Positions 21,176-26,165 are shown, numbered from the stretch's first letter. The stretch: 32,000 nucleotides of DNA from Candidatus Helarchaeota ASGARD archaeon Hel_GB_B (GCA_005191425.1 SUPR01000026.1:1-32000), one strand, 5' to 3'. The notes: generated from the sequence alone by a model not told the origin. Numbers and translations are program-made.

Positions 21176-21505
21176 ATGAAAAAATCTCGATTAACATTTG
21201 TATGTACTCAATTGGGAGTAACTGATTATTTATCATGGCATAATGAAAATACATTCAATGATTTAATTGTTAATTTGAAGCAAAAATATGAAAATCAAGT
21301 CTTGAAATACTTAAGAAAAAATTTTCAAAATATTCGAGAAAACATTACATTAAATGAAATTACTATTAAATTACATTATTTTGATAAGGAAGGAAATATT
21401 TTATCTATTGGAAATTTTGTTCCGGTTATTGAGATTATATCAAAAGGAATTAATAAAATATATTGGGATCCAGAGCCAATAGGAGGTATTATGTATCTCA
21501 CGTGA
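21176..21505 (+). CDS. Ubiquitin-like (beta-grasp) precursor protein with GG followed by a short tail
   Basis: Beta-beta-alpha-beta pattern (RLTFVCTQ, TDYLSW, TFNDLIVNLKQKY, IKLHYF, KIYWDP) ending EPIGG-IMYLT; immediately upstream of E2-like and JAB genes. Confidence 0.7.
   Translation: MKKSRLTFVCTQLGVTDYLSWHNENTFNDLIVNLKQKYENQVLKYLRKNFQNIRENITLNEITIKLHYFDKEGNILSIGNFVPVIEIISKGINKIYWDPEPIGGIMYLT
21481..21487 (+). promoter_or_regulatory. Perfect Shine-Dalgarno-like AGGAGGT overlapping the Ubl di-Gly codons, 3 nt before ATG 21491
   Basis: Seen directly. It may simply reflect GGA GGT Gly codons. Confidence 0.4.
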
Positions 21506-21533
21506 AAAATTCGCTGAGCATATTTATGATTTA

Positions 21534-21848
21534 TTGACCAGAAAAGGTTATTATTCAAATACATGGAGTTTAATAGATAAGAAAAATTATTCAAAAGGAA
21601 TATTTAGTTATTTAGTAAATAGTAAAAATCAAATTTTTGTTGTAGAAATATTATATAATGAGAATTACCCAAATAGACCTCCAATAGTCCATAGCAGTCC
21701 TTCTATTCGCGATCCTTGCTGGGATTCTAGAGGATATCTTCATTTTGCGGTAGCAGGGCGCGATTTTGCATGGAGTATATTTAAAAAGTCTTCTAACCCA
21801 TTAATATATCTCATTGATGAGTTAGCCATAAAATATAAAATAATATAA
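21534..21848 (+). CDS. UBC/E2-like protein with an atypical active site (start uncertain; frame open from 21483)
   Basis: VEILYNENYPNRPPIV matches the UBC xPxxYPxxPPxV motif. IRDPCWDSRGYLHF aligns with the HPNIdxxGxICL motif. Confidence 0.65.
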   Translation: MTRKGYYSNTWSLIDKKNYSKGIFSYLVNSKNQIFVVEILYNENYPNRPPIVHSSPSIRDPCWDSRGYLHFAVAGRDFAWSIFKKSSNPLIYLIDELAIKYKII

Positions 21849-21893: not shown

Positions 21894-22946
21894 TTGATAG
21901 AAATGTTAGTAATAGTTAAAGATAAGACAATTGAAGAATGTAAAAACGAAGTAAATGAATTTTTGAAGGGAAAATCATTTCATGAGGTTGGTGGATATTT
22001 AATTGGTACATATGATTATGATGCATCTATTGAATTATTTTTTTTAGATAAAAAAGCGGAATCTACTTCTACTAGAATTAAATTGAGTAGTGATTCCTTC
22101 CTTGAAGTCGAAAAATTATTAACCAAATTTCCAAATTTTCAATATTTAGGGACATGGCATGTCCATCCTGGAAAAGGATTACCAATCAAATCTGAAATCG
22201 ATGAAGCCACTTTATTTTTAGAACGATTTGTAATAGAGACCGATAATCCAGAGCAATACAAATGCCCAAGGATTCATATTATATTTAATGAAAATTTCAC
22301 CGAAATTAAGTGTTATACAATGAATTTAGACTTAGATTATGAATTATTTGAAGTTGAATCAATGACAAAATCAAATTTAGATTTGTTAGACATTATTAAT
22401 ATAATCAAGGAGAAATTAAACGAAATTGAAATATCAAATGGTAAAATAGATTTAGATGATTTAGAGGACATTTATAATAATTTAGTTGAAATTAGAGATA
22501 TGATTGACGGGTCTTTAGATTCACTTGAATCATTATTTATATTTGAAGAATTCAAGGAAATTTTTTATAATAATACTGAAAATATCGAAAACATTATTTT
22601 ATCAAATATAAGAAATAATGTTAATATTGGAATTCTAACTATGACCGATAAAAAAGTTATTATTGGTCTACCTTATCACCCTGAAATTATAGATTCTGCT
22701 GATGTTAATTCAGAACTTTTTGGATTTTGGAAGTATTTTCCCTATACAAAAATTGATTTATCATTTGAAAAAATTTTTCTAACGAATTTCTATCTAAAAA
22801 CAAAAGAAGAATATAGCAATCAATTTTTTTATTTCAGGTGCAATAAAGAGCTCCGCATAGAGCCATTTGTAGTAAGGTTTAATTCATATGATGGACTAAG
22901 ATATGATGAAGTAGAATTAAATATAATTAAAGACTCAGATTTCTGA
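21894..22946 (+). CDS. JAB/MPN+ (JAMM) metallo-isopeptidase with a long C-terminal extension (start may be ATG 21903)
   Basis: HEVGGYLIG (catalytic Glu), LGTWHVHPG and SEID give a complete E...HxH...SxxD JAMM motif. Confidence 0.85.
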   Translation: MIEMLVIVKDKTIEECKNEVNEFLKGKSFHEVGGYLIGTYDYDASIELFFLDKKAESTSTRIKLSSDSFLEVEKLLTKFPNFQYLGTWHVHPGKGLPIKSEIDEATLFLERFVIETDNPEQYKCPRIHIIFNENFTEIKCYTMNLDLDYELFEVESMTKSNLDLLDIINIIKEKLNEIEISNGKIDLDDLEDIYNNLVEIRDMIDGSLDSLESLFIFEEFKEIFYNNTENIENIILSNIRNNVNIGILTMTDKKVIIGLPYHPEIIDSADVNSELFGFWKYFPYTKIDLSFEKIFLTNFYLKTKEEYSNQFFYFRCNKELRIEPFVVRFNSYDGLRYDEVELNIIKDSDF

Positions 22947-25067: not shown

Positions 25068-26165
25068 ATGAATAAAAAAAACATAACCGTCCTATTTCAA
25101 AATCCGGACACTTTAGATTCGATTGAAATTAAAATTGAAAATAAAAATTATTATATAAGAGATATTGCCGAACAAATAATAGACAAATTTAATTTAAAAT
25201 CTCCTCCAATATTTTTTACGATTTTTAAAGACAAACCAACTGAAAATCAATATTTAGAAGAAAATGATAAATTAATTGATGTATTAGAAAAAAGATTAGA
25301 TGAAAAAATACCTATTTGGTGGCGGTCTAGTGATTTAAATGAAGACATTATGTATAATTTAAGAGTTAACAGATTTATTAAATCTGGATATAAAATCGAT
25401 ATAATCAAAAATAAGAATATTATGATCGTAGGTATTGGGCTATTAGGCTCAGAACTTGCTTTACATTGCGCCACAATTGGTATTAAAAATATTACGGTTA
25501 TTGATTATGGTTCTGTAGACTGGTATAATATTTATAGACAACCTTTATACACTAAAAATGATGTATTTAAAAGAAAAGTAGATGTGGCAAAAAATAAACT
25601 AGAATCAATAGGTGGAATAAATGTCAATTCAATATACATAGAAATTCCAAATTTTAATTCCTTGAATATAGAAAAAGATGTTGTTTTAAAGAACATCAAT
25701 ATATTAGAAAAAGCAGTAGAAAAAAATGACATAATTATCACCTCTTTGGATACTTTTAGTGCTAGAATGATAATTCAAATCCTTGCACTTGTCCATAATA
25801 AAATTTTAATAAATACAGCTGCAGGTCTTATCGGGGGGATTATTCAAATTATAAGACCTTTTCAAGACCCTTGTATTGGATGCGGTACATTTTATGATAG
25901 AAATCAAGAAACTGGTGCATGTACATTAGCTTCCTTTGGAACTCCTAAAATAATTGCTGGATTATGTATTGATGTCCTACTTGACTTAATAGAAAACAGA
26001 AAAATAGAATTTAATTATTTAAAATTCCTTCCAAATTACACTATTGAGACTAAAACTTTCTTTAAGGCAGATAATTGTCAATTCTGTGGTGAAAATGGCA
26101 TTGCTTCAGTGTACAATAAAAATTATAAAAAGGAATTACTCAACTGGTTATTTAATAATCATTAA
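25068..26165 (+). CDS. ThiF/MoeB/E1-like activating enzyme with an N-terminal beta-grasp-like domain
   Basis: GIGLLG, ID.G.VD..NIYRQ, KV, LDTFSAR, Zn site PCIGC...CQFC, and candidate catalytic Cys in ETGACT. Confidence 0.88.
   Translation: MNKKNITVLFQNPDTLDSIEIKIENKNYYIRDIAEQIIDKFNLKSPPIFFTIFKDKPTENQYLEENDKLIDVLEKRLDEKIPIWWRSSDLNEDIMYNLRVNRFIKSGYKIDIIKNKNIMIVGIGLLGSELALHCATIGIKNITVIDYGSVDWYNIYRQPLYTKNDVFKRKVDVAKNKLESIGGINVNSIYIEIPNFNSLNIEKDVVLKNINILEKAVEKNDIIITSLDTFSARMIIQILALVHNKILINTAAGLIGGIIQIIRPFQDPCIGCGTFYDRNQETGACTLASFGTPKIIAGLCIDVLLDLIENRKIEFNYLKFLPNYTIETKTFFKADNCQFCGENGIASVYNKNYKKELLNWLFNNH

Follow-up and report, generated by a model that had tools for sequence, protein, structure and literature searches.

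In Escherichia coli, the genes infC (encoding IF3) and pcnB start at an AUU codon positioned behind a Shine-Dalgarno (SD) sequence, and in prfB, the gene for RF2, the distance from the SD sequence to the frameshift site is 3 nt. Eukaryotic ubiquitin precursors, i.e. polyubiquitin and fusions of ubiquitin to ribosomal proteins with C-terminal extensions, are processed by deubiquitinases. In the Type I Bub system, a ubiquitin-like protein (Ubl) and an E2 are joined in the fusion BubAB, which is cut after a conserved Gly by the JAB domain of BubCD (Ye, Gong, Chambers and Corbett, bioRxiv 10.1101/2024.11.21.623953). Finally, termination-reinitiation coupling is described for overlapping archaeal gene pairs (PMC10666635). 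Here we analyse the junction of a Ubl gene and an E2-like gene that has no ATG, GTG or TTG at its apparent 5' end, located in a 32,000-nt stretch of DNA (SUPR01000026.1:1-32000; hereafter the window) from Candidatus Helarchaeota archaeon Hel_GB_B. The window is contig C103 of genome G000, a 3.5-Mb metagenome-assembled draft that consists of 182 contigs and is 93.7% complete; all positions below are those of the window, and all of its features discussed here lie on the + strand.

The Ubl gene (21176-21505) has an open reading frame (ORF) that ends in ..YWDPEPIGG-IMYLT-TGA. The Gly-Gly that closes the mature Ubl is encoded at 21482-21487 and is followed by IMYLT, a tail of five residues (21488-21502), and by the stop codon TGA (21503-21505). 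The frame of the E2, which is +1 relative to that of the Ubl, is bounded upstream by a TAG (21480-21482) and is open from 21483 onwards, encoding EVLC-ISREKFAEHIYDLL before it reaches TTG 21534; the 17 codons between 21483 and this TTG include neither ATG nor GTG nor TTG. We propose that the E2 is a separate cistron that initiates at the near-cognate codon ATC 21495 (21495-21497; ATT or ATA in relatives) behind an SD site, and from sequence comparison we estimate the probability of this reading at about 0.8. The putative SD site is AGGAGGT at 21481-21487, i.e. the Gly-Gly codons of the Ubl (GGA GGT) would double as the ribosome-binding site of the next gene, 8 nt before the ATC. The E2-like gene re-annotated in this way spans 21495-21848 and consists of 117 codons and a TAA stop codon.

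Both proteins have well-predicted folds. The AlphaFold model of the Ubl (mean predicted local distance difference test, pLDDT, 92.1) has beta-grasp topology, its Foldseek matches are ubiquitin-like domains and ubiquitin, and orthologues as well as the N-terminal halves of fused relatives align with it end to end up to the GG, with G103 invariant and G104 nearly so. For the E2, the Pfam UQ_con match is weak and below the cut-off, and position 1 of the profile falls near the start of ISREKF. When started at the Ile codon, the E2 is modelled by AlphaFold with pLDDT 91.6 and a predicted template modelling score (pTM) of 0.87, residues 2-15 forming a helix, and residues 1-116 of the model match eukaryotic E2 and UEV domains with Z of about 10, aligned from residues 2-5 of the solved chains (Foldseek, VIA-align). 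The features of the UBC fold (helix alpha1, a four-stranded sheet, a YPxxPP-type motif and the C-terminal helices) are present in the predicted model and the sequence, and the conserved Cys, C75, lies in a DPC motif. According to the model, the segment upstream of TTG 21534 is helix alpha1 of the UBC fold. The TTG itself (21534-21536), which gene callers take as the start, encodes the internal residue Leu14 at the end of this helix, as seen both in the model and in the orthologue junctions; a start there would thus delete helix alpha1.

Across orthologues, the 13 helix codons show, in the E2 frame, a ratio of nonsynonymous to synonymous change (pN/pS) of 0.19, synonymous change being saturated (pS 0.77), and the same stretch gives ratios of 2.2 and 1.07 in the other two frames. 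Purifying selection acting in the E2 frame alone indicates that the helix is translated in that frame. Every orthologue keeps the pattern I-S-[KR]-x-x-F-[AG]-E-H-x-[YF]-D-L in the E2 frame. The preliminary description of the locus, made from the window alone, had stated that the E2 frame is open from 21483 without a canonical start before TTG 21534, and had likened the upstream segment to the N-terminal helix of UBC domains. These sequence statements are all correct, and the identity of the helix is borne out by the Pfam register, AlphaFold and the fold alignment. That description had named E2 orthologues lacking the helix as the finding that would speak against it; the orthologues keep the helix.

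Searching relatives' genomes, species-representative genomes and metagenome contigs yielded 14 distinct junction sequences, with one orthologue, P0004, represented as protein only. Eleven of the 14 (the window, L002, L003, L004, L006, L007, L028, L029, L030, L031 and L032) have no ATG, GTG or TTG between the upstream in-frame stop codon and the helix. The sole canonical candidate in L026 is a TTG located 16 codons upstream, within the Ubl gene, and in L034, the DNA of P0003, a GTG lies inside GGT-GGA-GG; we consider both of these doubtful as E2 starts. The codon equivalent to ATC 21495 (the Ile codon) is ATT, ATC or ATA, i.e. ATH, in 13 of the 14 junctions. In L005 the position is occupied by ACT, and the E2 has its own, separate and well-spaced ATG. 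L005 is the sole orthologue with such an ATG, and its loss of the Ile codon counts for an ATH start elsewhere. Of the 13 junctions that lack a nearby ATG, nine are also devoid of canonical codons over the 40 codons following the Ile codon, so that downstream initiation is no option in these nine. A stop codon immediately precedes the Ile codon of L030, and one lies no more than a codon away from it in L002, L003, L004, L028, L029, L031 and L032; in all eight the Ile codon is the sole single-mismatch near-cognate on offer.

What the 13 junctions without a nearby ATG have in common is a conserved module: GGAGG or GGGGG, a spacer of unconserved sequence and ATT, ATC or ATA at the first residue of the helix. 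The spacer measures 8 nt in 11 junctions; of the other two, one has 7 nt and the other 9 nt. The motif is complementary to the 16S rRNA 3' end of the relative G003, which reads ..GGAUCACCUCCU (also given as ..CACCUCCU) and ends in CCUCC, and G003 itself has the start-less E2 arrangement. In G000, the spacer between GGAGG and ATG (taking the first ATG of 1769 long ORFs) is 7-10 nt in 30 of 44 cases and 4 nt in two. With its 8-nt spacer ATC 21495 falls within this cluster, and so AGGAGGT suits the ATC and not ATG 21491 (21491-21493), which is 4 nt from GGAGG, lies outside the E2 frame and encodes the Met of the IMYLT tail. It was to this ATG that the preliminary description had assigned the motif: the motif and the ATG in the Ubl frame are indeed there, and the assignment is what needs correcting, since the spacing points to the ATC as the codon served.

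The module also keeps its integrity while its surroundings change. In the DNA alignment of the junctions, the insertions of 3, 8, 21 and 23 nt all lie upstream of the SD motif, which leaves SD-N8-ATH intact while the frame relation of Ubl and E2 changes. The SD motif of L032 falls between the two genes, and those of L028 and L029 have ceased to code for the Gly-Gly of the Ubl. The junction of L029 (L029:1426-1545) carries a 23-nt tandem duplication of CCAATTGGAGGA.., through which the Ubl Gly-Gly has moved upstream and the second copy of GGAGG has been left as the ribosome-binding site of the E2.

The clade of orthologues has 100/100 support in the tree and comprises three family-level subclades, in all of which the +1 overlap occurs. 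Alongside it, several other frame relations are found. L030 reads GGL-TAA-ATT, with Ubl and E2 in the same frame and a stop directly before the Ile codon; the duplication in L029 places the E2 in the Ubl frame behind a TGA, with the sister L031 retaining the +1 overlap; an 8-nt insertion in L028 places the E2 in the Ubl frame behind a TAA; the Ubl of L032 ends at a TAG 19 nt upstream; the E2 of L026 is at +2; and in L005 Ubl and E2 are fully separate. These changes have at least four independent origins, and the E2 is intact throughout. Counted from the first base of the Ile codon, the Ubl stop is found at +5 to about +38 nt across the junctions.

This diversity bears directly on the +1 frameshift that the preliminary description had raised, in which the ribosome would slip between 21483 and 21502 and produce a Ubl-GG-linker-E2 polyprotein, running from ..IYWDPEPIGGIM.. 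into ..SREKF.., to be cut by the JAB peptidase after Gly-Gly. Several points favour the idea: an in-frame Ubl-GG-E2 is the commonest architecture of the wider family and is also that of a paralogue in G000, cleavage of such a fusion by JAB is proven for bacterial BubAB (bioRxiv 10.1101/2024.11.21.623953), the orthologue clade had the +1 overlap ancestrally, and the Ubl stop of the window, L003, L004, L007 and L031 is located in the first helix codons, resembling shift-at-stop sites. However, the 0/+1 relation is not conserved wherever the E2 is intact (the E2 of L028, L029 and L030 shares the Ubl frame but follows a stop, that of L026 is at +2, and the genes of L032 are 19 nt apart), and with these offsets a fusion could only arise through +1 slippage, readthrough of a stop or -1 slippage, singly or combined, depending on the lineage. 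In L002 and L006, moreover, the Ubl stop is about 35 nt inside the conserved helix, so that a shift at the stop would lose the helix. The DNA alignment of the junctions reveals no conserved slippery codon or shift site, the spacer being unconserved, and RNAalifold predicts no conserved RNA structure between -75 and +45 around the start. Any candidate shift codon is 10-13 nt away from the SD-like motif. A review of archaeal recoding presents -1 frameshifting, in fucA1 and some archaeal viruses, as what is established for archaea (PMC8211752). We therefore regard a programmed frameshift at this junction as improbable; that a minor fraction of ribosomes also frameshifts to give a Ubl-E2 polyprotein, beside separate initiation of the E2, is less likely as well. 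A -1 frameshift on the A_AAA_AAA of L026 was rejected as confined to a single lineage in which the heptamer simply codes for Ser-Lys-Lys, and transcriptional slippage was rejected for want of conservation of the A-runs, which are A5 in the window and A7 in L002. Reading TGA as a sense codon (genetic code 4/25) was likewise discarded, the neighbouring ORFs being well formed under table 11 and the change being of no help to the E2 frame.

Another reading would place the E2 start at a canonical codon further downstream (in the window, TTG 21534), without helix alpha1, and treat the similarity further upstream as a relic. This is what gene callers do: P0002 is called from TTG 21534 (104 residues), P0005 and P0011 from later still (77 residues), and five cluster members from several sources (JGI/IMG, NCBI, ENA and Logan) are called from internal starts, four of them at the TTG (104 residues) and one giving 97 residues. 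Against it, the helix codons are under purifying selection in the E2 frame, and the helix packs within a UBC model of high confidence; for nine orthologues there is no canonical codon to start from within 40 codons and, where such a codon is present, its position is not conserved. We therefore consider the downstream start very unlikely. We judge just as poorly the chances of stop-go or readthrough-type recoding or of another unconventional signal, such as a start at the out-of-frame ATG 21491 followed by a slip. An ATG does come directly after the GG codons in the Ubl-tail (or relic) frame in the window, L028, L029, L031 and L032, but it is absent from L002, L003, L004, L006, L007, L026 and L030, and a different recoding event would be required in each lineage. 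Least credible of all is a defect of G000, be it a sequencing or assembly error, a recent indel, or decay into a pseudogene. The source is a metagenome-assembled draft in 182 contigs, and a change of one base would yield an in-frame fusion resembling the paralogue; yet the same arrangement recurs in seven distinct +1 junctions over all three family-level subclades, the internally started cluster members come from several independent sources with four sharing the same TTG, and the E2 is intact and conserved throughout. Thus, of the explanations offered in the preliminary description, the frameshift falls to the varying offsets and to the lack of a conserved slippery site or RNA structure in the alignments, the recent indel to the presence of the +1 arrangement in all three subclades, and the sequencing error to the same conservation and to the independent assemblies.

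Initiation of the E2 at ATC 21495 does not appear to stand alone in G000. We screened the genome for ATH codons at a register spacing of 6-10 from any 5-mer of GGAGGTGATC, in frames of at least 100 codons, with no upstream canonical start and with the next canonical start at least 10 codons downstream. The screen returned 46 SD-led candidates (ATT 20, ATA 17, ATC 9), which would make the E2 start one member of a genome-wide class. Among the candidates are a GH2 glycosidase (L039, G000:C19:13025; ATC, Pfam domain from residue 3, next canonical start 160 codons downstream), Cbf5 (L041, G000:C99:29220; ATT, domain from residue 6, next start at 108 codons), FolD (L044, G000:C45:9630; ATA, domain from residue 3, next start at 81 codons), a DNA methylase (L042, G000:C96:28583; ATA, domain from residue 20, next start at 68 codons) and a TIR-LRR protein (L040, G000:C73:3347; ATT, TIR domain from residue 7, next start at 77 codons). 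The gene for aIF1 (SUI1; L037 1474-1803, minus strand, G000:C107) has no ATG, GTG or TTG before its N-terminal zinc knuckle and reads GGTGAT-TGT-ATA, so its start is likely to be the ATA behind GGTGAT; this suggests possible autoregulation of the factor that proofreads start codons. The draft contains eight tRNAs detected by aragorn, too few to bear on initiator or Ile tRNAs. Within the literature searched we found no description of non-AUG starts in Asgard archaea, and a 2026 review states merely, of Lokiarchaea, that SD sequences are rare there.

Several observations weigh against a start at ATC 21495. A first ATH screen of G000, restricted to GGAGG, showed no excess of candidates, and in the broad screen the AT-rich codons AAA and AAT give a background of 16 and 12. 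The 16S gene was not found in the G000 assembly, which is why the anti-SD sequence was read from G003. The Ile is also kept in P0003 and P0004, whose called proteins begin five codons earlier, and may therefore be merely a conserved residue. Actual initiation at the ATC is something that we infer from the comparative pattern. Lastly, archaeal aIF1 discriminates against non-AUG codons, according to Sulfolobus work as cited in PMC6237735, so that the efficiency of initiation at ATC may be low.

Taken together, initiation of the E2 as a separate cistron could proceed as follows. Pairing of the 16S rRNA 3' end with AGGAGGT (21481-87), 8 nt before the ATC, would place the small ribosomal subunit at the ATC, and the initiator tRNA would read AUC 21495, presumably as Met. 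As the Ubl stop codon TGA 21503 lies 8 nt downstream of the ATC, ribosomes terminating on the Ubl could re-initiate on the E2, beside de novo initiation. The weak start codon would result in far less E2 than Ubl, and the E2 product would begin (M)SREKF..., i.e. (M)SREKFAEHIYDLLTR, with helix alpha1 of the UBC fold complete. The Ubl would be made with its IMYLT tail, which the JAB peptidase of the operon presumably trims after the GG, exposing Gly-Gly. It is from the arrangement of the locus that we infer the coupling, the low output of E2, the trimming by JAB and the order of evolutionary events set out below. A further, tentative thought, on balance doubtful, is that the ATH start serves as a regulatory device: the E2 would belong to an Asgard gene set, including aIF1, whose output depends on the fidelity of initiation, and its synthesis would be tied both to translation of the Ubl, through the Gly-Gly/SD coupling, and to the activity of aIF1.

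A possible source of an E2 without a start codon is provided by fused relatives. The paralogue in G000 (L013 1198-1860, G000:C83) is an in-frame Ubl-GG-E2 fusion of 220 residues that reads ..YWNPEPIGG-NIEVFTQHINELI.. at its junction; neither a JAB nor an E1 gene is among its immediate neighbours. The paralogue is fused in G001 and G005 as well, and is split, with ATG or TTG starts, in G003, G004 and G006. An exhaustive profile search of 1.84 billion representatives recovered only 36 relatives, including fusions that a word-based search for longer proteins had missed. About 20 of the 36 are 190-260 residues long and carry the E2 behind a ..GG junction, in their C-terminal half; a further seven are stand-alone and one is a truncated call. 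The window Ubl can be aligned end to end, as far as the GG, with the N-terminal half of P0017. Six long proteins (P0018, P0020, P0032, P0033, P0042 and P0045; 1287-2553 residues) match positions of about 9-101 of the E2 profile in 4-17 repeated stretches, which could be a repeat or compositional match or else E2-like repeats. P0049, a fused Ubl-E2 relative, is encoded on an 11.26-Mb contig, which suggests that the family is not confined to Asgard archaea and perhaps extends to a large bacterial genome.

The polyprotein proposed in the preliminary description therefore exists in the paralogue L013 and in about 20 distant representatives, but not at the window locus, where Ubl and E2 are in different frames instead of one continuous ORF. 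Two further hallmarks of such a system, a Ubl ending in Gly-Gly and a JAB peptidase in the operon, are present in the window. We conclude that the locus is probably a frame-broken Ubl-GG-E2 fusion that was rescued by near-cognate initiation. The frame of a former polyprotein gene would have broken, the E2 half never having had a start codon of its own, and this half would have survived as the GGAGG of the Gly-Gly codons and an ATH codon already formed a usable initiation site.

Further components of the module are encoded downstream. The JAB/JAMM peptidase gene (21894-22946), identified as an ORF with matches to PADLOC JAB models (E 8e-10), has an ambiguous start, TTG 21894 or ATG 21903, with no obvious SD sequence before either codon. 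The E1, a ThiF-type adenylating enzyme of the same module, is encoded at 25068-26165 (Pfam ThiF, E 1.8e-31); its N-terminal extension of about 100 residues (25068-25300) has a weak RA-like (ubiquitin-fold) Pfam match and may carry a Ubl domain of its own.

Gene finders that accept only ATG, GTG and TTG truncate E2 proteins of the window type to 104, 97 or 77 residues, and in most Helarchaeales orthologues, which have no canonical start within 40 codons, only a badly truncated call is possible. In surveys of Asgard ubiquitin-like systems that are built on such calls, the E2 would be under-counted or mis-modelled. The locus represents a clean candidate case, validated by comparison, of ATT/ATC/ATA initiation from the archaeal lineage nearest the eukaryotes, in which the Gly-Gly codons of one gene would serve as the ribosome-binding site of the next; with other candidate genes in G000, including aIF1, it would be no isolated oddity. 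Finally, viewed beside the fused paralogue and relatives, the locus suggests a route by which a cut-to-activate Ubl-E2 polyprotein gene could turn into two cistrons without the acquisition of a new start codon.

The closest parallel for the proposed start is provided by infC and pcnB. As in these genes, the candidate start is an AUH codon without AUG, GUG or UUG, conserved among relatives and located at a normal distance behind a strong SD sequence, and a low or regulated output is a plausible consequence of the weak codon. The Helarchaeota E2 differs in being encoded by an archaeon with initiation of the aIF1/aIF2 type, in the interchangeability of the three Ile codons, and in that its SD sequence is made of the Gly-Gly codons of the upstream gene, with the start lying inside the upstream ORF and no regulatory loop known. 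Should output of the E2 and aIF1 indeed depend on initiation fidelity, this would parallel, in an archaeon, the autoregulation of infC/IF3 in bacteria and of eIF1 in eukaryotes. The archaeal coupled gene pairs (PMC10666635) share with the Ubl-E2 pair the same direction of transcription, a short overlap and an SD sequence inside the upstream gene; the E2 start lies 8 nt before the Ubl stop in the window and from 5 nt before to 3 nt after it in many orthologues. Unlike in those pairs, the E2 start is not AUG, GUG or UUG, and overlaps extend to about 38 nt in L002 and L006. The likeness to prfB and antizyme is confined to overlapping 0/+1 frames, an SD-like motif upstream and, in several orthologues, a zero-frame stop near the overlap; the frame relation is unconserved here, there is no conserved slippery codon, the distance from SD to stop is 10-13 nt as opposed to 3 nt, and the downstream gene has a plausible start of its own.

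With Type I Bub the module shares the direct succession of Ubl and E2, the Gly where the two meet and an operon that includes a JAB peptidase, and the G000 paralogue and about 20 relatives are true in-frame fusions just as BubAB is. In contrast, the reading frame differs between Ubl and E2 in the window, most likely with separate translation of the two; JAB and E1 are not fused as in BubCD but encoded by individual genes with 2.1 kb between them; and the E2 has a conserved Cys (DPC motif) where the Bub E2 is of the Ser/oxyester type. No BubE-type (DUF6527) gene was noted in the window, in which no search was aimed at BubE. While features are thus shared with Type I Bub, membership is not established at the sequence level. 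As in eukaryotic ubiquitin precursors, the residues past Gly-Gly would need to be removed before the Ubl can be activated; here, however, the tail consists of 1-13 non-conserved residues that result from out-of-frame reading of the E2 start region. Near-cognate starts led by an SD sequence and split Ubl-E2 fusions are both known kinds, and the window locus is a variant of them.

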